DNA from: Candidatus Latescibacterota bacterium
GTDB lineage: Bacteria; Latescibacterota; UBA2968; UBA8231
Direction of reading: 5' to 3'
NCBI GenBank assembly: GCA_965197905.1
Contig: CBDAOB010000004.1
Location: 1,152,001-1,216,000 of the forward strand
Length of the DNA stretch: 64,000 nucleotides
The position numbers and the translations under genes are program-made. Numbering within the stretch: the stretch's first letter is position 1; each line of letters starts with the position of its first letter. The notes under the pieces are model-generated. The model was not told the DNA's origin and made no database searches. It worked only from the letters and a program-made list of their open reading frames with translations. This document shows positions 4,222 through 30,774 of this stretch, piece after piece.

Positions 4222-7200
4222 TTAGTCGCCCTTCAGCGCAGATATAAGGGGGGATCGAAGCCCGGTCAGCGTCGCCGCAAAAACGGCAATGGTCCCGGTC
4301 GCGAAAACCGCCGCCAAAGTGGCCCAAATGGACCCCCACGGGACCTGCGCCGCCCGATATGCTGCATGCGGCGCCACCGCGATCGCGGCCGCGACGAGGC
4401 CACAGGCGATACCAGCCGCCAGCAGAAATGTGCATTCGCTAAAGAGCACAACGGTCAAACTGCGCCCGTTGTATCCGCACGCCCGCAACACCGCCAGCTC
4501 CGCCCTTCTTTCGACAATGTTGCGCCACAACACGACTCCCAGGCCGATCGTTCCAAGCAGTAGACCGAGGCCGCCCAGCAGCTGAAAGGTTCCCAGGTAG
4601 GTATTCTCCACCTCGCGGTATCGGGCCAGTCGATCGCCCGTGGCGGTGATGTCGAGTCCGTACTCGGACAGTGTATTCTCCAGAATCGCCGAGATCTGCC
4701 GGTCACGTTTCCCGGCAGTGTGCAGCAGAAAGTAGCTGTGACCATGGAAACCGGGGAAGTTACGCGTGAACTGCTCGTCCGAGATCAATAGTTCGCTCTG
4801 AAATAGCGAACCTTTCATAAGGCCGATGATGCGCAGCGTGATCCGCTCACCAGAGCGATTCTTCACCTCAATCTCATCCCCGAGACCTAGGTGCAGAATC
4901 CACTGAGCCGAATTGTAATCGGCGAAGGCTGGAATGACGTCGGAGATCTCCTCGTCCAGGAGCACCCACGGGTTTCCCCCTGTGAATCCGGGCGGAAGCG
5001 CCTGAAACGAGAACCCCCCGCGCTGCACAAGGCGGTTCGGAACCCCCAGAATGCGAGGTCGTTGGGGTCGGTAGAGGTTGAGGCAGCTGATATCTTCGCC
5101 GGGCAAACTTCGCAACGACAAGACGGTGGTCCCTTCGAGATGTTCTTCGTCAGCCGGGTTGAAGCCGAGCTCGTAACGCCCCAGCGCCGAATCCAGGTCT
5201 CGCAACAGCGGCACATCCGATTCGGCTACGAGAGTGAATCCGCCGGCTCCACCGTCGACTCTTTGCAACTCATTTAAGGATGGATGAGTGACTCGATTGG
5301 CCCCTACGGCTACCAGAATGAAACTGGCCGCACTGACCAGGGCGATGCAAAGCAGGGCACGACCCGGTCGACTGCGGTTGTTGCGCAAGCCCATTTGGAT
5401 CAACGAAACCCATCCTCGGTTGACTAATGCTCCCGAGCCAACTCCACGTTGCCACCACGCGCTCAACCCGGCCAAAGCCGCCACGAGGACGAGCAGGCCG
5501 GTCGCATAAAACATGCCGGCGCTCTTCGCCCCGTCCATGGCGGTCCCCAGGACCGCGGTTGCAAATCCGGTCCCAAGAGTCATCATTGACAGAAGAAGGG
5601 CTTTCTTTGGGGTTCTCGATCTTGAGGCCGTGGTTGTGATCCCGCGCAACAGGGATGTTACGGGCATGGTCTCCAGGCGCTTCACTGCCACCACCACGGT
5701 CAATACCGCCAGCAAAACGGAGATCGCGAGCCCGCTCGCCATGGTCGATGGCACCAGATGGACCGTGAGATACGTCGTGCCTACAGCAGCGACCCACCAG
5801 GTCCGAAGACCCTCGAGCATCAACCAGGCATACGCGACGGCCATCCCCAGCCCGACGAGACCCCCTGCCAGCGCCAAGTACCCCCCCTCCAGAGCGAAAC
5901 GGCGACTCACAGCACTGCTCGAAAAACCGACCGACCTAAGGTATCCCACCTCGGGAGCTCTTTTTTCTAAGCCCAACCCAAACAACAGCACTGCCAGCAG
6001 CATCGCCGACACGATCAAGAAGATGCTGAACCCGATGAAGAGACCGCTGAAATCGGTCGCGCCGGATGCCGCCTCGAGTCCCTGCTCTCTCAATGGCTGG
6101 AAAACCAGGCCAGCTTCCCCTCCATCGAGCCGGGACAGCAGCGCCTTTTCGAAGCGTTGGAGCGTAACTTCCCGCGCTGCTTCGTCCATCGGTCCGACCC
6201 AGATCGAGGTGAGGTCACCGAATCGACTGCGCCAGAGATTCTGCCCGGTTGCGCTGGCGACAAACGCTTTGGGCGTAGCTTGGAAGGCATCCCAGTATTC
6301 TTCGTCGACTGGACGAATCGATGTAAGGTCCATGGGGAACGGCGCCTCCCACGAAGCCATATTGTCATGTTCGCTCAGTCCCGGAAATGGGGGTGTCAGA
6401 AACCTGCGAGCGGCGAGCTCCCGGTGCGCAACAATCCCGCCAAGGGTGAACTCTTTAGTGACGGTAATCAGCTGGTCCCCTGGACCGGGAATGAAGTAGC
6501 TCACCGAAATCGGCTCCCCCGGCTCGACGCCAAGATCGTTCGCCGCCCACGAATTCAACAGAATCTCGTCTGCGGCCAGGCCGGATACAGTGGAGCCGTC
6601 CTCCAGATACAGGGATTGGAAACCGGACTCCGGCACGGGTGGGTCCACGGCCGTAATCGTGGAGTACGGAACGACACGGCCTTGCCCCTCTATGGTTACT
6701 GCGAGATAGGTCAATATTGGCAGTGCGGGAACGCCGATTTCGGCGGCCGCCTCGCGCGCTGCCGCCGCCAGCTTGGCCGGAATCATAAATTGCCGACTCT
6801 CCACCACAAAAAAACCTTCCTTGGGCGACAGCCCCAAGCCGAGATCCTGCAACAGCAAAACCTCATCCAACCCCTTCTGCAGAACAGTGATGGAATCCGC
6901 GACTTCACCCTCAGGGGCCGATGCCAAAAGCGCGTTGACCTCCGCCATACGATCAACCGTTTTCTGCAGATCACCGAGACGCACGAAAGCGTTGTAAGGT
7001 TGGGACTGCTGGGCGAACAAACTGAAGCGACCGATATCTCGATCGGGCACAACCCCGACCAGGACGACACGCAACAGCCGGGTGTGCGCTGCGCGCGAAC
7101 CAAACACGAACTCCGGCGCCACATCGAAGTTCCCTCCCACCGCCAGCAGGATGACATCCCCTAGATCCACGCGTAGTTGCTGCTGAAGAGCGGCATTGAT

Positions 7201-7617
7201 CACAAGGGGCGGAAACGGATTTTGGGACAGGATGCCGTTCGAGTCGTCGAATAGCTTGAGCAGCCCATGACCGCTGCCGGGAAAGAGCCTGGCGAAGTTC
7301 GAGTCGACGCCGCACATCTGAATCTTCGTAGCTCGCAGTCCCGTCTCGGGCACAGAGGCGCTGCCGCGCAGCAGAATGGCGGAAACGACGCGAAAATTCG
7401 TTCGGTTCGTAAGATCGGCGGCGATGGTGGTACGGAAGAAACGATCGGCGACGATGCCATGATCGATGGAGCCCAGTCGCTCGAGTGCAAGATCTCGCAA
7501 ACTGCCGCGGACCGAGTCCCCGACGATCAGCGCCCCGGTCAATACGGCAGTAGTGATTGCAAATCCCAGCACCACGGCCATATGAAGAGGCCAGAAATAC
7601 CTCAGGCTTCGGAGCAA
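4222..7617 (-). CDS. Large fused MacB/FtsX-type ABC transporter permease (1131 aa)
   Basis: Two FtsX-like TM bundles (KRAPEVGYLRSVGF; ERRAELAVLRACG) with large periplasmic domains. Overlaps the ATPase gene. Confidence 0.88.
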   Translation of the reverse strand: MLRSLRYFWPLHMAVVLGFAITTAVLTGALIVGDSVRGSLRDLALERLGSIDHGIVADRFFRTTIAADLTNRTNFRVVSAILLRGSASVPETGLRATKIQMCGVDSNFARLFPGSGHGLLKLFDDSNGILSQNPFPPLVINAALQQQLRVDLGDVILLAVGGNFDVAPEFVFGSRAAHTRLLRVVLVGVVPDRDIGRFSLFAQQSQPYNAFVRLGDLQKTVDRMAEVNALLASAPEGEVADSITVLQKGLDEVLLLQDLGLGLSPKEGFFVVESRQFMIPAKLAAAAREAAAEIGVPALPILTYLAVTIEGQGRVVPYSTITAVDPPVPESGFQSLYLEDGSTVSGLAADEILLNSWAANDLGVEPGEPISVSYFIPGPGDQLITVTKEFTLGGIVAHRELAARRFLTPPFPGLSEHDNMASWEAPFPMDLTSIRPVDEEYWDAFQATPKAFVASATGQNLWRSRFGDLTSIWVGPMDEAAREVTLQRFEKALLSRLDGGEAGLVFQPLREQGLEAASGATDFSGLFIGFSIFLIVSAMLLAVLLFGLGLEKRAPEVGYLRSVGFSSSAVSRRFALEGGYLALAGGLVGLGMAVAYAWLMLEGLRTWWVAAVGTTYLTVHLVPSTMASGLAISVLLAVLTVVVAVKRLETMPVTSLLRGITTTASRSRTPKKALLLSMMTLGTGFATAVLGTAMDGAKSAGMFYATGLLVLVAALAGLSAWWQRGVGSGALVNRGWVSLIQMGLRNNRSRPGRALLCIALVSAASFILVAVGANRVTHPSLNELQRVDGGAGGFTLVAESDVPLLRDLDSALGRYELGFNPADEEHLEGTTVLSLRSLPGEDISCLNLYRPQRPRILGVPNRLVQRGGFSFQALPPGFTGGNPWVLLDEEISDVIPAFADYNSAQWILHLGLGDEIEVKNRSGERITLRIIGLMKGSLFQSELLISDEQFTRNFPGFHGHSYFLLHTAGKRDRQISAILENTLSEYGLDITATGDRLARYREVENTYLGTFQLLGGLGLLLGTIGLGVVLWRNIVERRAELAVLRACGYNGRSLTVVLFSECTFLLAAGIACGLVAAAIAVAPHAAYRAAQVPWGSIWATLAAVFATGTIAVFAATLTGLRSPLISALKGD

Positions 7618-8276
7618 ACCCCACTCACCAGATCAGCGCGACGCTCGCAGCGAACGGCCAGCTCGGCACTGTGGGTAACAATGATAAGAATCGAAGGTCG
7701 GTCGGAGTGAAGCTCGAAAAGGAGCGCGATGACGGCCGCAGCAGCTTCGCGATCCAGATTACCTGTGGGTTCGTCGCACAGCAGAACCGACGGCTCGTTG
7801 ATCAACGCGCGGGCGACCGCGGCGCGCTGGCATTCACCCCCGGACATCTCGCCGGGTCGATGATCGAGGCGGTGGCCCAACTCGACGCGATCCAACAGAG
7901 ACTTTGCCCGTTTCAGAGCGTCCCTGCCACTACTGCGGTACGGCCAGGTGGGGACGAGCACGTTCTCGAGAAGCGAGTACTGAGGCAGCAGGTGATGGGC
8001 CTGGAAAACGAAACCGATGTGTTGGTTTCGGAAACGGGCTAAGTCCACCTCGCTGAGATTGCCCGGGGCGGTGCCATCGATGGTCACCGTACCGGAGGAA
8101 GGAGCGTCCAACGTTCCCAACAAGTGAAGGAGAGTGCTTTTGCCGGATCCAGATGGTCCGCTGATGGCCAACGATTCGCCCTGGCGCACGGATAGGTTTA
8201 CACCACGGAGTACCTCTACGTCGCCGAAGCGTTTGCAAAGATCTCGAGCCTCCACTATTCCCGTTTTTTCAGTCAC
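7602..8276 (-). CDS. ABC transporter ATP-binding protein (LolD/MacB-like)
   Basis: Walker A GPSGSGKS, MSGGECQR, LLCDEPTGNLD and VTH. Start placed at GTG 8276, overlapping the thioesterase stop. Confidence 0.92.
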   Translation of the reverse strand: MTEKTGIVEARDLCKRFGDVEVLRGVNLSVRQGESLAISGPSGSGKSTLLHLLGTLDAPSSGTVTIDGTAPGNLSEVDLARFRNQHIGFVFQAHHLLPQYSLLENVLVPTWPYRSSGRDALKRAKSLLDRVELGHRLDHRPGEMSGGECQRAAVARALINEPSVLLCDEPTGNLDREAAAAVIALLFELHSDRPSILIIVTHSAELAVRCERRADLVSGVCSEA

Positions 8277-8691
8277 CAGTCGCCACCTCAATCTTGTCGG
8301 CGATGAATTTGGGTATCGCGACGGACTCCAGGCTGCTGTCTGCATGGCATATGCAGCACGCCACCACGATGTGCCCCCGAGCGATGTGGGTTGCATCACA
8401 GGTGATGTTGAAAGCGTAAGCTATAGACTTTTCGCTGCGTCGCTCAACGGTCAGCTCAATCTCCAGCTCATCCTCGAAACGAGCGGGGTTGAGATATTCG
8501 CAGTCGGCGGTCAAGCGGGGGAAACCGAGCTGCTTGCCCTCCCATTCCAAGGCAACGCTCAGCCCGAGAGATCGGAGAAAATCGTGTTCAGTGGCCTCCA
8601 TGAATGCAAAAAATCGCGAGAAGTGCACGATGCCTGCCATGTCGGTGTCCGCAAACTCGACCGTTCTTCTAGTTCTGTGCTGTGATGCCAT
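8269..8691 (-). CDS. Acyl-CoA thioesterase (4HBT/YbgC hot-dog family)
   Basis: RTVEFADTDMAGIVHF and YLNPARFEDEL motifs; 140 aa. Confidence 0.9.
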   Translation of the reverse strand: MASQHRTRRTVEFADTDMAGIVHFSRFFAFMEATEHDFLRSLGLSVALEWEGKQLGFPRLTADCEYLNPARFEDELEIELTVERRSEKSIAYAFNITCDATHIARGHIVVACCICHADSSLESVAIPKFIADKIEVATGD

Positions 8692-8758
8692 GATATCTAC
8701 TCGCGGACCGAGCCGACAATGAGCTTGCCCGATGAAGCTGCCGAGGCGGTCGGATGCA

Positions 8759-9235
8759 TCAGGAGCCAGGTTTGAAATAGGTCACTAGAAACCCGCCGAG
8801 GGCGGCCAGCGCAATGCCCAGCATGAACGGCCAGCGCACGACGGCAAGACCTCCCGCTGGTGGATGCAGGGCCGTCGCCACCACCGCGTTGACGATAGGA
8901 GCGCCGGCGAAGACGATGGACATCACCACCGTTGGAGTCCCCTTGGCGCCAAACGCCAGCAGCACACCCAACGCCCCGATGGCACCGACAAATCCGGCCA
9001 CCGTCGACCAGCCCGCACCGCGCGCCGGGAAATTCCAGGAAGCGCCATTGACGACGAGCACGATGAGCGACCCGATAACGGCGGTGATGAGGTAGGCCAC
9101 GCCGACAAACAGATACGCCTTGTACCTGCCGTTTATGGGATCGGCCATAGCACCCTGCCCAATGTGGAGAAAAACCCCGTAAAGACCCCAGGACAAAACC
9201 GTGATGAGAGCAAAGATCAACCAACTCATGTTCAC
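8759..9235 (-). CDS. Small multi-pass membrane protein, EamA/DMT-like
   Basis: 158 aa with about five hydrophobic helices and a 'LSWGLYG' start typical of single EamA domains. ATGA overlap with the upstream gene. Confidence 0.7.
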   Translation of the reverse strand: MNMSWLIFALITVLSWGLYGVFLHIGQGAMADPINGRYKAYLFVGVAYLITAVIGSLIVLVVNGASWNFPARGAGWSTVAGFVGAIGALGVLLAFGAKGTPTVVMSIVFAGAPIVNAVVATALHPPAGGLAVVRWPFMLGIALAALGGFLVTYFKPGS

Positions 9236-10521
9236 TCCTTTGCAGCGTATCGTTTATAGACGGCCAGCGTGTTGCGAGCCATCGTGGTGTCGTCGAATCT
9301 TTCTCGCACCGCCTGCTGGCCCGAGCTGCCGAATTCGATTCTGCGTGCCGGATCTTCCGCGAGTTGCCCCAGCGCTTCACCGATAGCAACCGCGGAGTTC
9401 GGGTCTACCAGCACCCCACCACCGGTGGCTGCTATCAGCTCCGGAAACGCGCCATGCCGCGGTTCTACCACTGGGATCCCGGCGGCCAGCGACTCCAATA
9501 CGAATAGACCCTTAGGGTCGGCATAGGTGGTGGGCACCGATAGAACATCAAGTCGCTGCAGAAACGCAATCTTTTCCTCCCGCGTAACCTCTCCTTTGTA
9601 GATGACCCTGCCCTCGAGGCCGCGTTCCCGAACCTGGCGCATCAGGTCCTGGAAATAAACTCGGTCCGCGCTGCCGAGATATCCAGCGATCCTCAGGGTC
9701 AAATTCTCTTTTCCGAGACGATCACTCAGCTGAAAGAACGCCTCGATGAGGAGGTGCAGCCCCTTCTCCGGGCAGATGCGGGCCAGATAACCGATGTTGA
9801 AAGGTCCTTCCTCGTGGACCGGATCACTGTACCCGTTAAGAGCAATGCCCAGGTGAACTACGTCGACCCTCTCGGGTGGCACTCCGAGTAACGTGGCCAT
9901 ATAGTCGGAGTAATAGGCACAGGGCGCAACGAATCCATCCGCATCTGCGGCCCGTTGACGCAAAAGGCGCAATACTTGCGACTTGTAGGGTTCGATGAGA
10001 CCGTCGACGAACAGGTCCTCGCCCTGCAGAGCACAGAGCACCGGCACTCCCAGCTGTCGTTTGAGCTCGAGGGCGAATCCGAGGAATAAGGAGTTGGGCA
10101 GCTGCACCAGGTCGGGCTTGAAAACGCGAGCCAGCCAGTCGACCAGCTTGGCCAATTCCTTGCGTTGGCGACCTTGCTCCCCCTCCAGCACCGACAGCGT
10201 GAGTGCGCCCAGATCAGCGGCACTGGTAGAGGCGCTGAACCTGGATAGGCTGTTGAGCAATAGCGGGCGATCGAGCAAGCGGTCGATCGCCGCAGGCGTA
10301 TGGCGAAAGAGCGCCAATTTCTGTTGTAGATATACGTTTATGCCTCCGAAGAACACGCGGTCGATGCTGACATCCTCCTCGTCGGTCCGCAGCGGGGTAT
10401 ACGTGGGTACCAGAACGAGGTCAATCCCCAGCCTCTGGAGTGCAGCAGCGAGGGTATTGTCGTGAATGCAGCTGCCGCAATACATGCCGGCCGCTCCGGC
10501 GGCTATGCAGGCGACCTTCAT
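9232..10521 (-). CDS. Glycosyltransferase family 4 (GT-B) with an N-terminal YCGSC motif
   Basis: GYLARICPEKG and DPKGLFVLESLAAGIPVV motifs. Start ATG 10521 overlaps the symporter stop (ATGA). Confidence 0.9.
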   Translation of the reverse strand: MKVACIAAGAAGMYCGSCIHDNTLAAALQRLGIDLVLVPTYTPLRTDEEDVSIDRVFFGGINVYLQQKLALFRHTPAAIDRLLDRPLLLNSLSRFSASTSAADLGALTLSVLEGEQGRQRKELAKLVDWLARVFKPDLVQLPNSLFLGFALELKRQLGVPVLCALQGEDLFVDGLIEPYKSQVLRLLRQRAADADGFVAPCAYYSDYMATLLGVPPERVDVVHLGIALNGYSDPVHEEGPFNIGYLARICPEKGLHLLIEAFFQLSDRLGKENLTLRIAGYLGSADRVYFQDLMRQVRERGLEGRVIYKGEVTREEKIAFLQRLDVLSVPTTYADPKGLFVLESLAAGIPVVEPRHGAFPELIAATGGGVLVDPNSAVAIGEALGQLAEDPARRIEFGSSGQQAVRERFDDTTMARNTLAVYKRYAAKE

Positions 10522-11987
10522 CTTCGGTCCAGGTCGAAGAATCTCGCGATCTGTGCGGCTTCGGGGGGTCGGGTGAGCAGCGATCCAATGACCATGCTCG
10601 CCGTTGAAACCAGAAACATCGCCGCTACGGGCATCACCCCCGTCCCTGCCACGGTGTAGTCCGGGATCTGGCGGCTCGCCAAGAAGAAATAGATCCACAT
10701 CACCACTACGCTCGCGACACTGGCCGCGACCCCGTATTTGGTGCTGCGTTTCCAAAAGAGGGCGGCGACCACAATCGGAAACAGGGCGGCAAATCCGGTA
10801 AATGACCAGATCGCCATCTTGAAGATGCTGCGATCCACGACGAGCGACAGAACGTAGGTCAGGGCAAGAATGGCGATCACGAACAGTCGACCACTGCGTA
10901 CCTGCTGCCGTTCGCCCATGCTGTCGTGAAAACCGTAATGGCGTACAATGTCCTGGGTGAACATGGTCCCCAGGGAAAGCACCTGGGAGTCAAGCGAAGA
11001 CATGATGGCGGCGAACACGCCGGCGGCCAGCAAACCGGCGAGAATTCCAGGGGCGTACTGATCGATCATCCGGATCAGGATGCTGTTGGCGGCCGGCCCT
11101 TCCAAACCGGGAAAATCGACCGAGCCCAAGATTCCCAACAGCACGCTGGGTATCCAGACGATGGCGATGCACAGAGGATAGCAGATCAGCGGCCAGCGAA
11201 AGGTGCGAGCGCTTTTCGCTGTCAGGCAATGCATGAACATGTGGGGAAACATGCCCACCGACAGCGGCACGAAGGTGTAGGATAACATCTCGATGGGAGA
11301 GACACGAGCACCGCGAACAAGCAGCTCAGGTTGCTGCCCCGCTACCCTCGACAGAGCATGTTGCAACCCACCCATCCGGTCGACAATTACAAAGAAGGCC
11401 ACGGCGCCCAGTACCATGAATACCATGGTCTGAAACGCGTTGGCCCAGGCAGTGCCACGGAGTCCTCCCGAACAGACGTAGACCAGAACCACGACGCAGA
11501 CGAGCAACCCCCCTAACCATTGAGGAATCTCGCCCCCGGTAATCTGGTGCATGGTGATACCCCCTCCCATCACGCCGATCAAGAGATACGGTATGACCAA
11601 TGCCACCAAAACGACAAAGAGCAATAGACCCAGAAGATCAGATCCCCACCGCTGACGAAAATATTCTACCTGGGTCAAAAACCCGAATCGTTTCCCCAAC
11701 GACCACAGACGGGTTCCAACGAAAAAAAACACCGCCGGAATGATCAGCGCCGAGGAAGAGGCCATAAGGGCGAAGACACCGATGCCAACGTGGTAAGCTT
11801 GTGCCGACGCGCCAAGAATGGCAAAGGCAGTCATGTTGGTGCCAAAAAGCGACATCAACAGGAGAAAGGGACCGATGGTGCGGCTGGCCACAAAATAATC
11901 TTCGCCGGTGCCACGGAAGAGTCGGTGGCTCAGCCCGCCGATGACGATAACCAGGCCCAGATAGACGAGAATGACCGTTGTCGTCAG
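10518..11987 (-). CDS. Sodium:solute symporter (SSS family)
   Basis: EDYFVASR, GGLRGTAW and AAIMSSLDS motifs with about 13 TM helices. The start appears to be CTG 11987, after GGAGGA. Confidence 0.9.
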   Translation of the reverse strand: MTTTVILVYLGLVIVIGGLSHRLFRGTGEDYFVASRTIGPFLLLMSLFGTNMTAFAILGASAQAYHVGIGVFALMASSSALIIPAVFFFVGTRLWSLGKRFGFLTQVEYFRQRWGSDLLGLLLFVVLVALVIPYLLIGVMGGGITMHQITGGEIPQWLGGLLVCVVVLVYVCSGGLRGTAWANAFQTMVFMVLGAVAFFVIVDRMGGLQHALSRVAGQQPELLVRGARVSPIEMLSYTFVPLSVGMFPHMFMHCLTAKSARTFRWPLICYPLCIAIVWIPSVLLGILGSVDFPGLEGPAANSILIRMIDQYAPGILAGLLAAGVFAAIMSSLDSQVLSLGTMFTQDIVRHYGFHDSMGERQQVRSGRLFVIAILALTYVLSLVVDRSIFKMAIWSFTGFAALFPIVVAALFWKRSTKYGVAASVASVVVMWIYFFLASRQIPDYTVAGTGVMPVAAMFLVSTASMVIGSLLTRPPEAAQIARFFDLDRR

Positions 11988-19378: not shown

Positions 19379-19408
19379 ACAAAAAACCGGCCCGAATAAG
19401 GGCCGGTT
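19379..19408 (-). terminator. Intrinsic terminator (minus strand)
   Basis: Perfect AACCGGCCC/GGGCCGGTT stem with a 6-nt loop. The adjacent A run on + is a U tract on -. Confidence 0.85.
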
Positions 19409-23455: not shown

Positions 23456-24570
23456 CAGAATGCGGCCCGGTATAGCTCGAGAAGGTCGGACAGCGCCAAC
23501 GGCCGCGGATTGAAACGGGCGGTCCATTGCTCGGCGGCATCGGCGGCGAGGTCGGGGAGGACTTCCTCCGGCACCGGAATTTCCCGCAACTGCTGGGGCA
23601 ATCCCGCCGTGGAACGAACAACCGCCAGACGCTCGATCATCTCGTCGGCGCCACCTCCCAACACTGCGTATTCCCGAAACATCTCCGCGTCGTTGTGGCG
23701 TATGACGTGAGTCAACATCAAGCCGACCGCCGCGCCGTGAGATATATTGAAGCGGGCCGACAGCGGATTGGCGCAGGCGTGGGCCGCACCAAGCATGGAG
23801 TGTTCGATGGCAACGCCTGCAAAATGGGCCCCCGTCAACATCGCCTCCCACGGTTTGCTATCCTCGGTTCCGGCAAGCACCGTCTCGTAGTTCCTCTCGA
23901 GCAGGCGCCATGCCTCCGCTGCGAACATCTGCGACACAGGGTTGCGCCGCGTGCAAACATAGCTCTCCGCGGCGTGCGCCATGGCATCCAATCCGGTAGC
24001 AGCCACGACTTCGCGAGGGGCGCTGGGCGCCAGATGGGGGTCGAGAATGACCGCGACAAATTTCACCTTGCTATCGCCGCACGCCATCTTGCGATGTGAC
24101 TCGTCCTGGGCGATTACCGCGAACGATTGGGCTTCGCTGCCGGTGCCGGCGGTTGTTGGAATCCCGATCGCCGGCAACATCGGCTTGGTCGCACGGTTTA
24201 CACCCCAGTAATCCTCCATGCTACCGCCGTTGGTATAGATGAAGTTGATCCCCTTGGCGCAGTCCATGGCGCTGCCGCCACCTAGGCCGACGATGAGGTC
24301 GATGCTCCCACATTGATGTGCGAAATCGGCCCCGACCCGGACGTTGCTCGCCGTGGGGTTCTCGTCCACCTGATCGAAGATGTGGCATTCGTCGACTGAC
24401 CCCATGAGCAGGTCAAACGCCTTGGTAGTTAAGCCGCAGCGGGTGATCCCTGGGTCGGAGACCAGCAGAATCTGCCGAGCTCCAAACTTTTCCGGCATAG
24501 CGCCGAGGTCGTCCAGTCGCCCGGCGCCGACCAGCACCTCGGGACTGCACTGGAACTCAAACGAGGGCAT
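23455..24570 (-). CDS. Iron-containing alcohol dehydrogenase
   Basis: GLGGGSAMD, IPTTAGTGSE, DAMAHA, AHACA and SHG metal ligands. Confidence 0.93.
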   Translation of the reverse strand: MPSFEFQCSPEVLVGAGRLDDLGAMPEKFGARQILLVSDPGITRCGLTTKAFDLLMGSVDECHIFDQVDENPTASNVRVGADFAHQCGSIDLIVGLGGGSAMDCAKGINFIYTNGGSMEDYWGVNRATKPMLPAIGIPTTAGTGSEAQSFAVIAQDESHRKMACGDSKVKFVAVILDPHLAPSAPREVVAATGLDAMAHAAESYVCTRRNPVSQMFAAEAWRLLERNYETVLAGTEDSKPWEAMLTGAHFAGVAIEHSMLGAAHACANPLSARFNISHGAAVGLMLTHVIRHNDAEMFREYAVLGGGADEMIERLAVVRSTAGLPQQLREIPVPEEVLPDLAADAAEQWTARFNPRPLALSDLLELYRAAF

Positions 24571-26008
24571 CTTGCAGCGGCCCGGAGCTCCTGATCTGCA
24601 GCGCTCGTTGCTGATACAGCAATTCGAAGAGATTGCCCTCGTGGGGCTGATCCCACTCAATCCGATTGGTCCTAATCGGCCCGATATTGAGACGGTCGAT
24701 GGCAGGCGTCGTGAGCAATTCGGCGACGAAATCTCGTTGATCCGACAGAGCCGTCACCACCAGGCTTGGTCCGATCATGTTCAACAACTCTGCCTGTGGT
24801 GCCTGAACCACGCTGACGAACGGGAAGAGGAATTCGGTGTTGGCCAGCGGGTGTGAGCCGTCTTCGCACCATACAACCGTTGGCAGCAAGAAGCTGCAGC
24901 CATCCACGATGGTGAGACGCGGACCTTTGCGATACCGTGCGGTCAGGTCTTCCGCACCCGGAATTGTCAGCTGCGACTCGATCAACTGGTCGATGCCTCG
25001 CGCGACGTCCGGGTTGCTGAAGGCGGCGATCCGGGCGCGATCGTCGGTGAGACTGCGGGCTTCGATCTTCGCCAGCCGGCGCGCCAGTTCCTCGGCGAGC
25101 TCGCGTCCTTGCGACGTGGTCCACACACCGGAGGCATTGATGCAGGAGCGACCGCCGTTGTCGACCACCGAATGTTCGATGAGATCCAGGTATTCGGACC
25201 ACTGCGGTGCCGTGTCGGCGGCAAAGAGAATCTTGCTACGTCCGGGACCATGAATTTGAACCCCGGGTTCGGTGCACCACGGATCGACGGTGGCTCCACC
25301 TCCGAACAAGAGGGAGCGTCCACATTGCAGCAGAATCTCCGCCGCTCCGCTGTGATCCGTTGGATAGAAGCTGAACGCCGGTGCTGGACAGCCGGCAGCC
25401 ATAAACGCCTGGGCTACCCGAAACGGCGTCCAGGGCTCCTCCGCGCCCGGTTTTAGAACCACCGGGACCTTGAGCGCAATGGAAGGCAACCACAGGGAGT
25501 GAACCCCGGGGGAATTGCTCGGCAGGACGCAACCGAGAGCCTGGGTCTGGCACAGATAGCTGAGGTTGCGACCGTCCGGATTTGTGCCGGCCGTGCCGTC
25601 GAGCACGGTCATATCCAACCCGCGGGTCAAACCGTCCAGGACCTTCTCCATCGACGTCAGGACTGTGGAGATCTTCTCCATGTTGGAGCGACAAAGGACT
25701 CGAGGTAGACCGGTGCTTGCCGAGGTCTGGGCAACATAGTCGTTCGGCGTTTGCACCGAGTTCCCCAGCGGCAACTCCCCTTCCATGAACAGCTTCGCGG
25801 CCCGGTAGCAGAGCTCCATCAACGCGGCCGTACCCATCTCGGCTAGCTGCTGTTTGTGATGGGCAGCAGCCGCAAGATCGAGCGCGATCAATCCTCGATT
25901 GGCCACGCTGACCTCGGCCAGCGGCTCTCCCGATCGAATATCCCGCACGATGCTTTTCTTCAGGCTTGCGTACGGCGTGCCGGCGCGCAGGATCGGTAGG
26001 TGCAGCAT
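24557..26008 (-). CDS. Aldehyde dehydrogenase-fold protein, GriD/EhpG-like putative acyl reductase
   Basis: LPSNSP, LKP, catalytic Cys in NGGRSCINAS and EFLFPF. HGPGRSK stands in place of ELGGK. TGATG-coupled to the upstream gene. Confidence 0.82.
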   Translation of the reverse strand: MLHLPILRAGTPYASLKKSIVRDIRSGEPLAEVSVANRGLIALDLAAAAHHKQQLAEMGTAALMELCYRAAKLFMEGELPLGNSVQTPNDYVAQTSASTGLPRVLCRSNMEKISTVLTSMEKVLDGLTRGLDMTVLDGTAGTNPDGRNLSYLCQTQALGCVLPSNSPGVHSLWLPSIALKVPVVLKPGAEEPWTPFRVAQAFMAAGCPAPAFSFYPTDHSGAAEILLQCGRSLLFGGGATVDPWCTEPGVQIHGPGRSKILFAADTAPQWSEYLDLIEHSVVDNGGRSCINASGVWTTSQGRELAEELARRLAKIEARSLTDDRARIAAFSNPDVARGIDQLIESQLTIPGAEDLTARYRKGPRLTIVDGCSFLLPTVVWCEDGSHPLANTEFLFPFVSVVQAPQAELLNMIGPSLVVTALSDQRDFVAELLTTPAIDRLNIGPIRTNRIEWDQPHEGNLFELLYQQRALQIRSSGPLQDALV

Positions 26009-27126
26009 CAGTAGACTCCCACCACCACCGACTGCTGCAGCTCGGAAAGCAACCGCAGGTTGCAGACCCCGTCCCACGGATACTGGACGGTCGGTTCCGC
26101 GCGTTCGGCCTCGTCCCGCTCCAGAAAACGGGGCATGAAGAACTCCTTCGTCAAGGTGGTCAGCATGACCCGACCTGTTCCCCCGTACGGTACCACCTCA
26201 TTCGGTGACTTGGGATCCACCAGCTCGATTACCGCCCGAGGCTGCGGCGGGTAGTAGGTGATCGCGTAGTCGTCTTCCGGATCGAACGGCTTGAAACAGG
26301 CCAATCCCATCAGGGTGTTGCCGTAGGTCGGGACGAAATCGATCCCAGGTACCAGCTCCTCGCGGGCAAATCGATGGAACTGGGCATCCATCTCGGTGCC
26401 GCCGCAGAAAATCCCAGTGATCCCCGCTTTGGCCAGGGAGATCTTCGAGGCCAGTGCTTCCAGCAGTTTTGGGGTGGTGAACAGACAGCGGACGTTATCG
26501 TGAGCCCGCAGTACCGTAAGTGCCTGGTGTACAACGTGATCCTTGTACTCTTCCAGGTCGCGGTGTTTGCCTTGGGACACCATTCGGTTTACCCAGCGGG
26601 GATCCAGGTCGACCATGAAACAGATGCCACCGCGCAGCTGCGCCAGGTGTTCCACTGCCAGACGCAGGCGGCGCGGGCCGCTGGGACCGAGCATCAACCA
26701 GTCGCCGCCAGGAGGGAACCCCTCCGCCGATAGTGACTCGCTGAATTGCTCGTAATCGATCTGGAAATCCCGGACATTGATGCGGTACTTGGGCGTGCCC
26801 GTGGACCCACCGGTTTCGAACACGTACACCGGGTCGTCTTTGTACGCCTTGGGGACCCAACGCCGCACCGGCCCGCCGCGCAGCCACTCATCCTGGAAAT
26901 GGCCCAGCTTGCTCAGGTCGCCGTAAGCCCCGATTTCGGTGAGCGGATCGAAGCCGAGCTCTTCCTTCCGCTGCAGCCAGAAGTCGCAACCGGTCTCGGC
27001 ACTGAAATGCCAGCGTACGATCTCGCGGACATGAGCGTTGAGTTGCTCGCCGGCGGCGTTGACGGCACTGTCCGTGGGTCTTTCAGAATCTACCATGTTC
27101 AAGAGAGTATTGGGGTGTTCGCTCAA
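26008..27126 (-). CDS. EhpF/GriC-like short adenylating enzyme (atypical ANL family)
   Basis: WHFSAETGCDFWL, ETGGSTGTPK P-loop, DLDPRWV, GGTE, YGNT, ERD and C-terminal VGVY, the motif series I recall for EhpF/GriC. About 370 aa. Confidence 0.8.
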   Translation of the reverse strand: MSEHPNTLLNMVDSERPTDSAVNAAGEQLNAHVREIVRWHFSAETGCDFWLQRKEELGFDPLTEIGAYGDLSKLGHFQDEWLRGGPVRRWVPKAYKDDPVYVFETGGSTGTPKYRINVRDFQIDYEQFSESLSAEGFPPGGDWLMLGPSGPRRLRLAVEHLAQLRGGICFMVDLDPRWVNRMVSQGKHRDLEEYKDHVVHQALTVLRAHDNVRCLFTTPKLLEALASKISLAKAGITGIFCGGTEMDAQFHRFAREELVPGIDFVPTYGNTLMGLACFKPFDPEDDYAITYYPPQPRAVIELVDPKSPNEVVPYGGTGRVMLTTLTKEFFMPRFLERDEAERAEPTVQYPWDGVCNLRLLSELQQSVVVGVY

Positions 27127-27142
27127 ATCGCGTAGACCGCGA

Positions 27143-28576
27143 TCACTCGCCGGCTATCGCGAACAAGGTGTTGCGGCTGGCAATGTACAAGACCCCGTTT
27201 TTGGCGACGGGTGTGGTGTAGATGGAGCTTCCCATGTTGACTTCGTAAAGCAGCTCCTTCTTCTTGCCGGCGCGGAATACAGCCACGTCCCCGTCTTCGT
27301 CTCCGACGTAGAGCTTGCCGTCGGCCACCAGCACCGAACCCCATATAGCCGCAAAGGTGTCGTAGGTCCAGTACTTCTCGCCGGTGGCGGCGTCTATGCA
27401 GTAGACGAATCCGGTGAGATCGGCGGTGTAGAGCAGTCCATCGCTGACGGCCACGGTCGACATAGTGCGATTGTATTCGTGGCCACCCAGATGCCAAACC
27501 GGCCCGCTCGAAGTAATATCTCCGCTGCCTCGTGCATCGATCGCCCACAGATGTCCGATCCCTTCGCCATGTTCGGGATCCTGTCCAACCCCGACATAAA
27601 CGATGTTGTCGTGAATCACCGGTGTGGAAATGATATTGTTCCGCGTCCCTCGTCCTCCCAACTCCCACCGGCTATCCTTCGGATTGCAGTCGAATTTCCA
27701 GATCAGCTTGCCGGTTTCCGGCTCAAAAGAGTAGATCCATCCGTCCCCGCCGGGAAAGACGACCTGTCCCTTGCCGTCGATCTCCGCGTAGGCCGGATTG
27801 GACCACTGGCCATGGAGAATGCCTTCCCCGGGGTCGGCGTTCTCCCACACCAGTTCGCCAGTATGTTTGTTGACCGCGATGAAGCTGGGCGCAAACGGGG
27901 AGGGAACATGCACGTGTCCCTCATCCACGCCGTTGCTGGTGACGACGAAGATCAGATCGCCGGCGCCGATGGGCGAACAGGTGGCGAGGTTGTGGGGAAA
28001 TACATCCAGCTCGGCGATCATGTCCAGCTTCCAGATCAGATCGGCATCACTGGCCGTAGTGTCCGTCTCATTCTGAATCGCACCATCGTTTTCACCGTCG
28101 AGGAATCCCTCTGTGTCCGCGCTGACGATTTCACATCGGTTGGAGATGTAATAGAGCCGGTCCCCCTCGATATACGGGGTTGAGCAGATTCCCTGCTGGG
28201 GCCAGTCGTTGACCCTGCCAGCGGGTAGTTTGGTGTGACTCGCCTGCCACAGAAAGGCACCGTCGGTTTCGTTGAAGGCGATCAGCACGCCGCGATCTCC
28301 CGTGTCCTTCGGAATACGCAGGGCTCCGTTGTTGGTGCCGACGAAAACCTTGCCGCCGATGATCAGCGGCCCGGCATACGTCTGGGAACCGAGCTCCGCC
28401 TTCCATTTGATGTTCTTACCTGTTTTGGTATCCCACGTTGCCGGCAGGTCCTTCGCCTCTACGACCATGTTTCGACCCGGGGTAAAACCCCACATGGCGG
28501 TTTCGGCGGGCTCGGCTTGCAGCATGCCGGTCATAAAGGTCACGGCGATCAGAGCAGCAAAACGCATCATCTTCAT
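27143..28576 (-). CDS. Secreted PQQ-like beta-propeller protein (477 aa)
   Basis: Signal peptide MKMMRFAALIAV...AE, NIKWKAELGSQ and G..W blades. ATGA overlap. Confidence 0.85.
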   Translation of the reverse strand: MKMMRFAALIAVTFMTGMLQAEPAETAMWGFTPGRNMVVEAKDLPATWDTKTGKNIKWKAELGSQTYAGPLIIGGKVFVGTNNGALRIPKDTGDRGVLIAFNETDGAFLWQASHTKLPAGRVNDWPQQGICSTPYIEGDRLYYISNRCEIVSADTEGFLDGENDGAIQNETDTTASDADLIWKLDMIAELDVFPHNLATCSPIGAGDLIFVVTSNGVDEGHVHVPSPFAPSFIAVNKHTGELVWENADPGEGILHGQWSNPAYAEIDGKGQVVFPGGDGWIYSFEPETGKLIWKFDCNPKDSRWELGGRGTRNNIISTPVIHDNIVYVGVGQDPEHGEGIGHLWAIDARGSGDITSSGPVWHLGGHEYNRTMSTVAVSDGLLYTADLTGFVYCIDAATGEKYWTYDTFAAIWGSVLVADGKLYVGDEDGDVAVFRAGKKKELLYEVNMGSSIYTTPVAKNGVLYIASRNTLFAIAGE

Positions 28577-30774
28577 TGAGATTCGTTCTCCCACACCCTC
28601 AGGTTGTCGTACTGAATGTCTGCCGCGGAATAGCCATAGATCCCCGGACTTCCCGATCGATTCGGCAACGGGTCCTCCGCGGTCATCGTCCAGGATGCCG
28701 GCTCGGGATCGCCCCTGGGCCAGACCTTTCCCTTCACCAGAGCACGGCTGTCTTCCACGTCGACGCGCATCTTGACGGTGTACCAGACGTTGGGGTCCCA
28801 ACTGAAGTCGATCGTTTTCGCCATGCGCAGATCTGAAGCCCACGAGCGAATCTGGAGACGCTGATGGTTGCCCATCATATCCAGCGTGTAACGCTGATTG
28901 ATGAGCCCCATATCGGGTCGTCGTCGTTTGTTCTTGGTACCCAAAAGGTCAGCCTGGATCGTGTATCCACTCATGGTGGAGGCGCCCAGGTAGACGTTGG
29001 AGCGATGTAACCCCCGTGGCGATGGAGGTTTTACCAGGACGCGGTTGCCATCTTGAGTCGCAACCTTGAACTTGCTGCTGGCAGCCACCCAATAGGGCGG
29101 ATTCTTCCCCACTTCCACGGTCTCGAAATCCTCGGTCCAGGGTAAGTCCGGAAACGCGCGAACGCGGGCGCTCGCCTCCAGACCTTCGTAGGTCGCCTTT
29201 ACCGCACCCGCCTGGCCTCCCGCTTTGCCGTCGAGTTTGAGTCGGCCTTTGTCGTTCTGTGATCCAGCTATGTTTTCGAGACTCCATGCTGCTGGCACGC
29301 TACCCAGAGGATTGCCGGTGGCATCGAAGGCGCGGGCCTCGAAGGTCACCTTCTGTCCCGGGCGGGTTAGCAGCTCCGTGGGCGTCGCCTGCAGATGGGT
29401 AGCGGCCCCGACCACGGGTGGCGGTTGCGCCGCTCCCATTTTCTTCGTGGAAGCAGTCGACTTGCCATCGCCGAGGCAGTAAAGTCCTTCCTCGGTGCTG
29501 AAATAGATCCGTCCGCGGTCAACGGCCGGCGAGCCGTAGATCTCGGCCGGTCGGTCTTCTTCGCCTACCAAAACCCTATCCGCGTCTAGTTTGGTCGCCG
29601 CTGCAGTGCTGACGTCGACGATATGGAATCCCCCATTGACCTCCGTCGCAAAGATCTTTCCGTCGGCCCACACCGGCGAGCCCTTACCTACGGTGCCGAG
29701 GCTGTACTGCCATCGCGAGGCCCCCGTTGCCGCATCGAGACAATGCAGGTTGGCCGAGTTGTCCACCACGAATAGATCACCCCCGTGTACCACTGGCGAA
29801 GTGTAACCGACGGCGCAGCCGTCGTAGCGCCAGACCTCATGTGTAGCGGTGACGTCCCCGGTTCCCGTGCCGTCGATGCAGACGACTCGGCCCATCTCCG
29901 TACTGTCCAGATTCTCCTCGCTGTGAGCAGCATAGACCAGATTGCCCTCCACCACCACCGACGAATTGATACCCCGCTGGCTGAGCTTGAACCCCCAAAC
30001 CTTTTCGCCGGTAAGCGCTTTCATGGCATAGATGCCGCCGTCGGCGTTTCCGGCAATGAGCAACTCCTGACCATTGATATTGGCTAACACCGGCACCGAG
30101 TAGGTAGTGTCGAGAGGTCGACCGCCCGGTGTAGAGATCCACACAACGTCGCCTGTCCTCTTGTCAAAGGCGAAATAACGATGACGCGGGACGGTGTGCG
30201 CACCCCAGCTGACATTGAGGAAGCTTATGATTACGAGATTGTCCACCACCACCGGAGTATGGACGCGGCCGCCGTATCCGGAGATGCGACCGTACTCCTC
30301 GGTCAGCGAGCGCGACCATACGATGCCACCGTCGCGGTCGAAGCAGAAGAACAGCCCCTGTACCCCGTGGGCGTAGATGTAGCCGGTTTCCGGATCGCCC
30401 GCCGGGCTCGCCCAACCGACCCTGTTAAAGGGAATCGTGGTGTGAAACAGGTTGAAACGGTGTTCCCAGATCAGTTCACCAGTCTCGGCATCGAAACCGG
30501 CGACGCGTTCCTGTTCGGTGATGTCTCGTCCGACCCGTCCCATGACATAAACCCGCCCATCCAAAACAACAGGGGTGGAACGCCCCGTAAAATCGGCCCG
30601 CCAGAGCAGATTCTTGCCTTCCGGGGACCACTCTGAGATGAGCCCGGTATCCTGGCCGACGCCATTTTGGGACGGTCCACGCCAGCTGGGCCAATCTCCG
30701 CCAGCCGAAGTGACCAGGAAAACGCAGAGAAAGGGGACGGTTCTTAGTACCCTTCCGTACGATGACTGAATCAT
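28573..30774 (-). CDS. Secreted PQQ-like beta-propeller protein with C-terminal Ig-like and lectin/DUF1080-like domains (733 aa)
   Basis: Signal peptide, DWPSWRGP and propeller blades to about residue 440, followed by beta-rich domains ending GIYG...YDNLRVW. Confidence 0.85.
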   Translation of the reverse strand: MIQSSYGRVLRTVPFLCVFLVTSAGGDWPSWRGPSQNGVGQDTGLISEWSPEGKNLLWRADFTGRSTPVVLDGRVYVMGRVGRDITEQERVAGFDAETGELIWEHRFNLFHTTIPFNRVGWASPAGDPETGYIYAHGVQGLFFCFDRDGGIVWSRSLTEEYGRISGYGGRVHTPVVVDNLVIISFLNVSWGAHTVPRHRYFAFDKRTGDVVWISTPGGRPLDTTYSVPVLANINGQELLIAGNADGGIYAMKALTGEKVWGFKLSQRGINSSVVVEGNLVYAAHSEENLDSTEMGRVVCIDGTGTGDVTATHEVWRYDGCAVGYTSPVVHGGDLFVVDNSANLHCLDAATGASRWQYSLGTVGKGSPVWADGKIFATEVNGGFHIVDVSTAAATKLDADRVLVGEEDRPAEIYGSPAVDRGRIYFSTEEGLYCLGDGKSTASTKKMGAAQPPPVVGAATHLQATPTELLTRPGQKVTFEARAFDATGNPLGSVPAAWSLENIAGSQNDKGRLKLDGKAGGQAGAVKATYEGLEASARVRAFPDLPWTEDFETVEVGKNPPYWVAASSKFKVATQDGNRVLVKPPSPRGLHRSNVYLGASTMSGYTIQADLLGTKNKRRRPDMGLINQRYTLDMMGNHQRLQIRSWASDLRMAKTIDFSWDPNVWYTVKMRVDVEDSRALVKGKVWPRGDPEPASWTMTAEDPLPNRSGSPGIYGYSAADIQYDNLRVWENESQ

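Follow-up and report, generated by a model that had tools for sequence, protein, structure and literature searches.

A modular gene cluster of Candidatus Latescibacterota that joins a putative two-protein carboxylic acid reductase to a Type VII ABC machine and exported beta-propellers

What can eighteen co-oriented genes for tailoring enzymes, transporters and exported proteins do together, when no synthase for a molecular scaffold stands among them? This question is raised by a locus of a Candidatus Latescibacterota bacterium (assembly GCA_965197905.1, contig CBDAOB010000004.1, positions 1,152,001-1,216,000 of the forward strand), a stretch of 64,000 nt which we call the window and in which all coordinates below are counted. 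The cluster occupies 4222..30774, all of its genes lie on the minus strand, and they form two blocks, A (4222-16834, genes A10 to A1) and B (19683-30774, genes B8 to B1). The families that a first-pass annotation of the bare sequence had named for these eighteen genes were all confirmed by Pfam and NCBIfam scans, which we used for every family assignment of window proteins; every cluster protein stays below the curated cut-offs of the NCBIfam equivalog models. We found that the two blocks are parts of one modular system. With a rough probability of one half, this system converts a carboxylic acid into a glycosylated, probably halogenated product and hands it to exported propellers.

Whether the two blocks belong together can be judged from other genomes. 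We searched 41 related genomes of 22 genera for the PaaK-like ligase A9, took 40 kb around A9 from ten of them and placed the window proteins there by tblastn. In six of the ten, the blocks are directly adjacent in one and the same order, B8-B7-B6-B5-B4-B3-B2-(B1)-(A10)-A9-A8-(A7-A6)-A5-A4-A3-A2-A1, with no foreign genes between them; three of the six are of the same family (G004, G015 and G017) and the others are of families f2 (G032), f3 (G030) and f4 (G040). In relatives, the receptor gene A10 is placed where the B genes meet the A genes, and A6 is present in only some of these genomes. The same-genus genome G002 has its blocks separated as in the window, and G011, G019 and G025 carry only part of the gene set near A9. 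Moreover, B6, B7 and A1 are each present as a single copy in the same 27 of the 41 related genomes (14 of the 22 genera); in the other 14 genomes none of the three was found. Of these 27 genomes, 25 also have A8 and an orthologue of A9 (E below 1e-140), the exceptions being G003 and G012 with completeness of 86 and 84, and B2 occurs in the same 25 genomes and as a fragment in G005. Identity to the window protein is 66-76% for the 27 orthologues of B7 and 54-64% for the 25 of A9, except for the same-genus G002 (94% and 87%, respectively). B6 and A1 lie on one contig in 21 genomes, within 25 kb in 17 of them and at 55 kb in G019; they are more than 1 Mb apart in G011, G025 and G029, where the cluster is split and both halves are retained. 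All five genomes of other phyla or classes contain one A1 orthologue each. In one of these records (Acidobacteria bacterium Mor1, L064), A1 begins 1.2 kb past the end of the locus, and therefore the cluster is contiguous there. These kin are not independent, so that the phyletic profiles serve as a description and not as a statistic. Because of the co-localisation in other genomes and phyla and the near-identical phyletic profiles, the two blocks form one system, as had been supposed in the first-pass annotation with co-localisation elsewhere as the proposed check. The arrangement is far beyond chance, the same order recurring in other families and phyla.

How widely is this system distributed, and which of its parts are essential to it? 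A profile scan of species genomes with the B6 alignment gave at least 575 stretches that encode relatives, and the best 80 were analysed as loci. Their labels are Acidobacteriota of several classes (42), Candidatus Poribacteria (18), Latescibacterota (7), Gemmatimonadota (4) and Planctomycetota (1), together with six unlabelled and two oddly labelled loci. With an E of 1e-30 or lower, B6 matches at least 8000 protein clusters, and the public names of its relatives among the matches listed are only 'hypothetical protein' or 'PaaK-like'. Each locus spans 10 kb on each side of B6, so that the distal A genes of an extended form mostly fall out of range. This extended form, B8-B7-B6-B5-B4-B3-B2-B1-A10 and so on, is found in Latescibacterota, Gemmatimonadota, some Poribacteria, Thermoanaerobaculia and other Acidobacteriota. 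Every one of the 18 Poribacteria-labelled loci has B7 and B8 ahead of B6, as do most of the other extended loci. On the other hand, 23 Acidobacteriota loci have a compact operon, in which B6 and B5 are followed directly by the family 4 glycosyltransferase (GT4) and then by the ATPase of an ATP-binding cassette (ABC) system and an FtsX permease (Pfam check of L093 and L085). An EamA-like gene stands beside the compact operon in seven loci, and a CarboxypepD_reg/OMP (outer membrane protein) barrel gene stands upstream of it in eight. Of the 42 Acidobacteriota loci, 18 contain a propeller that best matches B1 (23-41% identity), and in some of these it comes directly after the permease gene. It is evident that the system is modular. 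Its core, shared by every form, consists of B6, B5, GT4, the EamA-like protein, A2, A1 and a propeller, and the add-on modules are B8 with B7, B4-B3-B2-B1, A10-A9-A8, A7-A6, and A3. From the compact operon it follows that uptake, activation with coenzyme A (CoA), halogenation, the iron-containing alcohol dehydrogenase (Fe-ADH) and the radical S-adenosylmethionine (SAM) enzyme are add-on modules.

A quick tree of B6 with SH-aLRT support, for which the careful search is incomplete, splits the compact from the extended forms by a branch of 100% support, except that L105, a Planctomycetota row of the extended type, groups with the compact forms. In eight Poribacteria-labelled loci (range L029-L044), no further cluster gene follows B5 within the locus; a weak Vgb_lyase beta-propeller-like fragment, a sulfatase and an M19 dipeptidase were observed there after B5. 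Two tandem B8-like genes lie upstream in the loci L029-L044, the cluster being arranged differently in that lineage. A screen of neighbouring families in 90 loci, which covered open reading frames (ORFs) of at least 110 aa and would let small genes outside the blocks escape, gave no further recurrent gene family beyond 11 of the 90 loci and none that supplies a substrate. The largest extra family (11/90) is the lineage-specific Vgb_lyase-like beta-propeller fragment, and others are a sulfatase and WD40. No scaffold synthase or carrier protein was found in the cluster, where gaps within the blocks are at most 127 nt, or in this 90-locus screen, so the lack of a scaffold synthase remarked on at first sight is borne out. 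Sixteen longer proteins with fused forms (B6+B5, B6+B5+Fe-ADH, propeller+B6, and B6 with a sodium:solute symporter, SSS) were not used, nearly all being single-member clusters; they are probably gene calls that read through overlapping stops.

The center of the core is the pair B6 (26008..27096; start at ATG 27096 or TTG 27126) and B5 (24557..26008). Positions 11-361 of the B6 profile (361 positions) align with residues 12-366 of the 366 residues of EhpF (3L2K/3HGU) at E 2e-50, and EhpF is the sole strong match of this profile among solved proteins. Both are ANL N-domains without a C-terminal domain, and the P-loop TGG(S/T)TGxPK of B6 is kept in 89/89 sequences. B5 is a distant member of the aldehyde dehydrogenase (ALDH) superfamily, in which the Cys of GGRSC(I/V/L)N is invariant in 70/70 sequences. 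A complex of B6 and B5 was predicted with an ipSAE of 0.76, against 0.00 for the best of three controls; the mark of 0.76 is reached by 116 of 157 solved complexes and by 2 of 215 mismatched pairs. The model runs share at least 79% of contacts with a partner pLDDT (per-residue model confidence) of at least 90, and the interface residues fall on invariant alignment columns. This model supports binding of B6 to B5; we know of no solved complex of an EhpF/EhpG-type pair. Bera et al. reportedly proposed in 2010 that EhpF and EhpG turn phenazine-1,6-dicarboxylate into the 6-formyl compound. With B6 aligned end to end with EhpF, the early designation as a GriC/GriD-like pair was right. In the cited parts of the literature, GriC forms an acyl-AMP and GriD reduces this acyl-AMP to the aldehyde (PMC10179220), and in a phenazine operon ehpF and ehpG stand side by side as an AMP-binding gene and an ALDH gene (PMC11278526). 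B6 and B5 are thus most likely, judging from their sequences, a two-protein carboxylic acid reductase of the EhpF/EhpG (GriC/GriD) kind. A fatty-aldehyde reading after LuxE/LuxC was rejected: at E 0.001 or below, Pfam recognised B6 by AMP-binding alone and B5 by Aldedh alone, and no solved protein is closer to B6 than EhpF.

With regard to the glycosyltransferase and the envelope part of the core, A5 (9232..10521) belongs to GT4 by Pfam and has an N-terminal CxxC motif, M(Y/I/L)CG(S/A)Cxx DN, which is conserved in 34/34 sequences; it has no specific characterised relative, and a search of the PDB gave only generic matches to GT4 C-terminal parts. A4 (8759..9229) is a half-size EamA-like membrane protein of 156 aa. 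A2 (7602..8255; start uncertain, 8255 or 8276) is a LolD/YbbA-like ABC ATPase, which scores 244 bits on LolD, 198 on YbbA and 145 on DevA in NCBIfam, all below the cut-offs. A1 (4222..7617) is a permease of about 1131 aa with two FtsX modules, about ten hydrophobic segments and a first periplasmic domain of 500 aa. The model of this domain (pLDDT 84.3) matches in fold LolE (Z 16.0, rmsd 4.7 over 200 residues), MacB (Z 14.7) and YbbAP (Z 11.0), with lipoprotein-bound LolCDE also among the matches, and its extra half has only weak matches to double-psi barrels (Z 6-7.6). In addition, MacB_PCD was found by Pfam in the A1 orthologue of L093. From these sequence and fold matches, A2/A1 is assigned as a Type VII ABC machine of the MacB/LolCDE/FtsEX/YbbAP type. 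A tripartite efflux pump like MacAB-TolC was not recognised in the cluster: Pfam gave neither a membrane-fusion adaptor nor a TolC-type outer-membrane channel in the 18 genes or in the compact operons. The closest structural relatives of A1 are the extractors LolCDE and YbbAP. YbbAP pulls hydrophobic compounds out of the inner membrane and offers them to an enzyme in the periplasm (PMC12646458).

Among the add-on enzymes, A8 (12202..13449) is a flavin-dependent halogenase of the phenol/pyrrole type, of the Trp_halogenase-type family. Its best solved relatives in the PDB are 8ZOP (3.7e-56), PltA, Bmp2/Mpy16, ChlB4, CmlS and CndH. Flavin-dependent halogenases are defined by GxGxxG, WxWxIP and a conserved Lys. 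In A8 the Lys aligned with PltA FPKK, WxWxIP in the form WFW(S/Y/F)IP, and GDAxGFxDP are invariant in 15/15 orthologues, and GxGxxG in the form GGGPAG is invariant as well, being covered in 14 of the 15; the halogenase-type flavoenzyme of the first-pass annotation has therefore kept all halogenase motifs. A9 (13446..14747; start at the ATG of residue 87 of the longest ORF) is a full-length aryl/acyl-CoA ligase of the PaaK family, with PaaK 4R1L as a match at 7e-51 in the PDB and with 244 and 214 bits on the PaaK models of NCBIfam, below the cut-offs. A3 (8269..8691) is an acyl-CoA thioesterase of the YbgC/4HBT type (Pfam 4HBT_2 and 4HBT), which falls just short of TIGR00051 (66 bits vs cut-off 68.7) and keeps DTDxAGIVHF in 9/9 sequences. 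B4 (23455..24570) is an iron-containing alcohol dehydrogenase (Pfam Fe-ADH 8.6e-41 and ADH_Fe_C), below every NCBIfam cut-off. Uptake could be provided by A7 (11984..12205), a small membrane protein with DUF3311 (Pfam 5.1e-07), and A6 (10518..12044), a sodium:solute symporter (Pfam SSF 6.3e-41) with 13-14 hydrophobic segments. B2 (21007..22350) is a HemN-like radical SAM enzyme (Pfam Radical_SAM and HemN_C), whose solved relatives are HemN 1OLT (2e-35) and second the methyltransferase NocN (1e-23). It keeps CxxxCxxC in 31/31 sequences and has F or Y at the position of the fourth Cys in 31/31. The fourth Cys of CxxxCxxCxC has a role in HemN. B2 scores equally on the models of HemN, ChuW/HutW, STM4012 and HemW, all below the cut-offs, and a bona fide HemN (coproporphyrinogen III oxidase) was ruled out by its score (184 bits vs 325) and the absence of the fourth Cys.

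The four exported propellers are B1 (19683..20951; PQQ_2 by Pfam, with a signal peptide), B3 (22343..23455; exported or membrane-anchored, PF13570 Beta-prop_ACSF4 205 bits vs cut-off 133), B7 (27143..28576; PQQ_2 by Pfam, the most conserved of the four) and B8 (28573..30774; Pfam PQQ_2 3.6e-33). All of them have only generic similarity to PQQ_2 and BamB-like proteins. They were not accepted as dehydrogenases dependent on pyrroloquinoline quinone (PQQ), the family cut-offs being missed: each has at most 80 bits on TIGR03075 against a cut-off of 480. Against the PDB, B7 and B8 matched only generic propeller repeats, with a match to a quinoprotein dehydrogenase over only about 74 residues. The C-terminal part of B8, about 284 aa, is predicted as an Ig-like domain followed by a concanavalin A (ConA)-like jelly roll of the lectin kind (pLDDT 92.6). 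Its Foldseek neighbors are the lectin domain of galactocerebrosidase, Big_2-CBM56 and CBM66 (TMt 0.67-0.71).

We infer the chemistry of the system, the aromatic nature of the acid, the order of the steps and the hand-over to the propellers from these families as follows. B6 would adenylate a carboxylic acid, and B5 bound to it would reduce the activated acyl group to the aldehyde. The CxxC-type GT4 would attach a sugar, and the half-size EamA protein with A2/A1 may take this amphiphilic glycoside through the inner membrane or out of it, for delivery to the exported beta-propellers. In the form found in the window, the acid could be taken up through the TonB-dependent receptor and the DUF3311/SSS symporter, the PaaK-like ligase may make the CoA thioester, A8 may chlorinate or brominate it, and the 4HBT thioesterase may free the acid again. 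Moreover, Fe-ADH could reduce the aldehyde to the alcohol, the likely glycosyl acceptor, the radical SAM enzyme would add one step, most likely a C-methylation, and the four periplasmic propellers, one of them lectin-like, may bind or process the glycoside. Import, modification and re-export of a glycosylated acid by one system had been suggested at the outset; the one system has stood, and the chemistry is plausible from the gene families; an aromatic substrate, its import and the re-export of the product out of the cell are possible features of it.

Several points weigh against this proposal. The aromatic acid is suggested by analogy to two characterised relatives only, EhpF and GriC, and in the 90-locus screen no aromatic-acid-making gene recurs near the cluster. 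Pfam and NCBIfam gave no flavin reductase gene in the cluster for the halogenase. The PaaK-like ligase was not detected between receptor and halogenase in four extended loci, acidobacterial or unlabelled (L064, L066, L071 and L073), where the halogenase directly follows the TonB receptor, and therefore the halogenase does not always need the ligase. To our knowledge, a CoA-thioester substrate has no precedent for such a halogenase. Enzymes of the PaaK family can also directly form esters or amides, as BagE does according to the consulted sections of a preprint (bioRxiv 10.64898/2026.08.03.742642). The lectin-like fold predicted for B8 is a common one, and its best matches have modest TM-scores. 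B6 is unusually conserved, with 62-80% identity across phylum labels, and the labels are mixed within the extended clade of its tree, where the nearest neighbors carry Gemmatimonadota, Latescibacterota and window-class labels (L038, L043, L053, L058, L059 and G040); this fits gene transfer or mislabelled bins and is uninformative on function. In the genome of the window itself, the blocks A and B are not expected to be co-transcribed, because a terminator-like hairpin and three unrelated genes separate them.

Of the other explanations, an envelope glycolipid survives best, though we regard it as unlikely. A lipidic acid would be reduced by the pair and Fe-ADH to a fatty aldehyde and alcohol, GT4 would make an alkyl glycoside, EamA would flip it, and a LolCDE-like extraction would send it on its way to the outer membrane, the BamB-like propellers serving as its carriers or as scaffolds, in a manner resembling the export of heterocyst glycolipids by DevBCA. 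The ATPase matches both LolD and DevA and the permease matches DevC weakly, the periplasmic domain of A1 is closest to LolE and to LolC in complex with a lipoprotein, the relatives of the GT4 include the lipid-glycosylating PimA and GlcN-PG synthase, and the only named relatives of the propellers are BamB and similar proteins. Furthermore, BrtI, an exporter of the glycolipid bartoloside, is a frequent best match in such clusters according to the preprint (bioRxiv 10.64898/2026.08.03.742642). However, B6 matches EhpF and not LuxE, with AMP-binding and Aldedh as the only Pfam results for the pair, and the PaaK family, the phenol/pyrrole-type halogenase and the 4HBT thioesterase are typical of aromatic chemistry. 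The cluster has no fatty-acid or acyl-carrier genes, and the system was not found in 14 of the 41 relatives, which is odd for a core envelope lipid.

Somewhat less likely again is a cycle like that of metallophores or signals, in which a glycosylated (halo)aryl product would be released and retaken, as siderophores are, via its own TonB receptor and the symporter. A10 (14735..16834) is by Pfam a TonB-dependent receptor with Plug and barrel of the siderophore-receptor kind; it stays just under the cut-off of TIGR01783 (214.3 vs 223.5 bits), and its best equivalog is the catecholate receptor Fiu. Its gene is inside the operon in relatives, and a receptor-like barrel stands beside the compact operon in the eight loci mentioned above. 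In the case of pyoverdine, maturation in the periplasm is followed by secretion through a MacB-type pump. On the other hand, the cluster genes include no siderophore synthetase family by Pfam and NCBIfam, that is, no nonribosomal peptide synthetase (NRPS), NRPS-independent siderophore (NIS) synthetase or other chelator-building enzyme, and no adaptor/TolC secretion partner. No Fur-box-like site was found in the cluster with the E. coli-type consensus, which may not apply in this phylum; the 64 kb contain one site with at least 13/19 matches, which is not in the cluster, and shuffled sequence would be expected to give 1.4. TonB receptors also occur without other metallophore features in the consulted part of the preprint (bioRxiv 10.64898/2026.08.03.742642).

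Another explanation, which we hold to be quite improbable, is cofactor supply: the ABC machine would deliver a small glycosylated aromatic molecule as a prosthetic group to 'empty' PQQ-like propellers. It would amount to a new periplasmic cofactor pathway with a glycosylated (halo)aromatic ligand and a Type VII ABC loading device, spread over Acidobacteriota, Latescibacterota, Gemmatimonadota, Poribacteria and Planctomycetota, and for this wider claim we see the same small chance. Propeller genes invariably accompany the reductase pair (B7 and B8 before B6 in the 18/18 Poribacteria-labelled loci), the propellers being of a kind that deserves note: they weakly match 'acido-empty-quinoprotein', and the conservation of B7 (66-76%, the same-genus relative excepted) is more enzyme-like than scaffold-like. 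PqqC was found in 0/41 relatives, control genomes also giving no match, and the best PqqE-like match in the window's own genome has 147 bits against a cut-off of 381. The cofactor maturases QhpG, LodB and GoxB are second-rank relatives of A8. This idea is opposed by the wide miss of the PQQ-dehydrogenase cut-offs (at most 80 bits vs 480), by the short quinoprotein dehydrogenase match of about 74 residues, by a binding pocket without evidence, and by A8 itself, which is nearer to true halogenases than to QhpG (187 vs 135 bits, NCBIfam).

A slightly smaller chance still is left to a catabolic or detoxifying route, in which an exogenous aromatic, possibly halogenated acid would be taken up, activated with CoA, modified on the ring, reduced, tagged with a sugar and expelled. 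The importers are encoded (TonB receptor and SSS symporter), glycosylation followed by efflux is a common scheme, and the logic of ligase, halogen chemistry at the CoA level and 4HBT thioesterase is known from 4-chlorobenzoate dehalogenation. Yet there are no ring-cleavage, beta-oxidation or dehalogenase-family genes in the cluster, A8 keeps the Lys and WxWxIP of halogenating enzymes, the compact core has neither ligase nor halogenase, and the strict conservation of four exported propellers would be hard to explain. Finally, two or more unrelated operons lying merely side by side, as the 2.8 kb with unrelated genes and the terminator-like hairpin between the blocks might suggest, are almost certainly excluded by the identical phyletic profiles, the contiguity elsewhere and the compact operon, which mixes genes of both blocks.

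Start codons were refined from orthologue alignments and junction geometry, CTG starts not being considered. Most genes are joined by overlapping stop and start codons, as first annotated: ATGA at B8>B7, A9>A8 and A6>A5, GTGA at A8>A7, and TGATG at B6>B5 and B4>B3 were verified. Overlaps of 8-16 nt join B5>B4, B3>B2, A10>A9 and A2>A1. The start of B3 is the ATG at residue 133 of its longest ORF, which overlaps the B4 stop and is followed by a hydrophobic N-terminus. Signal-peptide-like N-termini are found on the four propellers, the receptor and a lipoprotein inserted between the blocks, and the cluster enzymes are without them; that of B8 runs from ATG 30774 and the signal peptide of B7 begins with MKMMRF. 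The gene A4 needs a separate word. The longest ORF between GT4 and the thioesterase (8697-9389) encodes an arginine-rich sequence with no hydrophobic segment and no family, and it was rejected as the A4 gene, since tblastn gave it 30-72% identity, against 69-96% for the frame 8759-9229 in 8/8 relatives having the region. This frame encodes a multi-pass membrane protein with AAGGAG 5 nt upstream; an acidobacterial homologue matches EamA over its full length (E 0.0011), and Atlas neighbors carry the name 'putative EamA domain-containing protein'. Thus, the EamA-like gene of the first-pass annotation is real, its actual ORF being 8759-9229 in a frame other than that of the longest ORF. Gene calls based on the longest ORF may mis-annotate this locus in related genomes as well.

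Between the blocks (16835-19682) lie a C-terminal remnant of an aldo/keto reductase, a plus-strand gene for glyceraldehyde-3-phosphate dehydrogenase (GAPDH), a lipoprotein gene and a hairpin. The remnant is an ORF of 128 aa (16831-17217, minus strand), which matches only the last 46 of the 291 positions of the aldo/keto reductase model (E 0.0014) and whose stop overlaps the TTG start of A10; it looks like a gene remnant cut by the rearrangement that parted the blocks. The GAPDH gene (17299-18735, plus strand) is of the long form (NF006139, 752 bits, above the cut-off), and the lipoprotein gene (18747-19262, minus strand) has a lipobox and no family. Among the ten relatives, these two genes stand between the blocks only in the same-genus G002. 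The hairpin after B1 (19385..19408, minus strand), with nine pairs, seven of them GC, and a T-run, is the best-scoring terminator-like site in 16000-32000, and its function as a terminator is presumed. The separation of the blocks in this genome looks like a recent insertion or rearrangement, because the inserted genes are present only in the window and G002, the 128-aa ORF is truncated and the hairpin is there.

Upstream of B8, a gene of the SMP-30/gluconolactonase family (SGL; 30902-31834, minus strand) directly adjoins the cluster. It is adjacent in two of the ten relatives (G002 and G004), lies about 9 kb off on the other strand in G017 and may be a loose accessory of the cluster. Two large proteins without Pfam family follow upstream of it (31831-36256, minus strand), one of 960 aa with a signal peptide and one of 520 aa. 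The 960-aa protein has 97% identity in G002, above any cluster gene there (71-96%), and G019 has three tandem paralogues of it with 24-28% identity. Farther on, 36675-46806 holds two PhyH-type dioxygenases, two xylose-isomerase-like TIM-barrel proteins, an RraA-like aldolase and a GFO/IDH/MocA oxidoreductase, which are unrelated to the cluster, and beyond this group are genes for 2-oxoglutarate dehydrogenase E1/E2/E3, PurL and an MrfA-type helicase.

Clusters made of tailoring enzymes only escape the standard rules for biosynthetic gene clusters (BGCs), and the host phyla of this one are abundant in soil, sediment and sponges, with almost no known chemistry. The system joins cytoplasmic tailoring of a small molecule to an envelope extractor and exported propellers. 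Once its product is identified, several large 'unknown' families would gain functions together, PQQ-like propellers would have a role in bacteria where no PQQ-synthesis genes turned up, and a bacterial source of halogenated compounds would possibly come to light.

How does the cluster compare with known systems? In the literature searched, no characterised pathway has this gene set; the families are known, and their combination is uncharacterised yet widely conserved. The remark of the first-pass annotation that no characterised pathway is known still holds, though a 2026 preprint, of which we refer to the sections consulted, draws attention to clusters of this type (bioRxiv 10.64898/2026.08.03.742642). 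Loureiro et al. reported there 840 'Halo_AMP' clusters in sponge metagenomes, none similar to MIBiG and no product assigned, found by a custom antiSMASH rule that asks for a Trp_halogenase-type gene and an AMP-binding gene side by side. The present cluster is probably overlooked by standard BGC rules, as was suspected from the outset, because this paper, the only one found on such clusters, needed that custom rule. Like our cluster, the Halo_AMP clusters contain PQQ-like domains at high frequency, TonB receptors, radical SAM enzymes, glycosyltransferases, thioesterases and ABC genes, with best matches to BagE, Bmp2 and BrtI, and their origins include Acidobacteriota, Latescibacterota and Poribacteria. 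The preprint deals with a wide pseudo-class, of which another member (CC A, which has a P450) was taken further, so that which Halo_AMP family equals the present cluster cannot be said from these sections. The reductase pair, the compact operon and the occurrence outside sponges are not described in them.

Among characterised enzymes, EhpF/EhpG of Pantoea agglomerans (D-alanylgriseoluteic acid) and GriC/GriD of Streptomyces griseus (grixazone) also have a short ANL protein without the C-terminal domain beside an ALDH protein. Unlike them, B6/B5 stand outside a phenazine or 3,4-AHBA (3-amino-4-hydroxybenzoic acid) pathway, with no genes for such acids nearby, and go together with GT4, a Type VII ABC machine and exported propellers. 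PltA, Bmp2, Mpy16, CmlS and CndH, the closest solved relatives of A8 (E 1e-44 to 1e-56), have GxGxxG, WxWxIP and the Lys in common with it, and they act on substrates bound to carrier proteins. In contrast to PltA-type systems, the blocks leave no room for a carrier-protein gene, and A8 is flanked by the PaaK-like ligase and the 4HBT thioesterase. A9, A8 and A3 fit the order of functions in 4-chlorobenzoate dehalogenation, where an aryl acid is converted to the aryl-CoA, the halogen step takes place on the thioester, and a 4HBT-fold thioesterase releases the product. The middle enzyme A8 is a halogenating flavoprotein and not a dehalogenase of the crotonase family, and the direction is opposite. 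With regard to the envelope, A2/A1 resembles YbbAP-TesA of E. coli and LolCDE in its YbbA/LolD-like ATPase, A1 being a single permease with two FtsX modules and MacB-type periplasmic domains, the first of which (about 500 aa) is roughly twice as long as the solved domains of LolE and MacB (about 200 residues aligned). As with YbbAP-TesA, no adaptor/TolC gene lies alongside and exported proteins are encoded next to A2/A1. Their candidate partners are, unlike the lipase TesA, beta-propellers.

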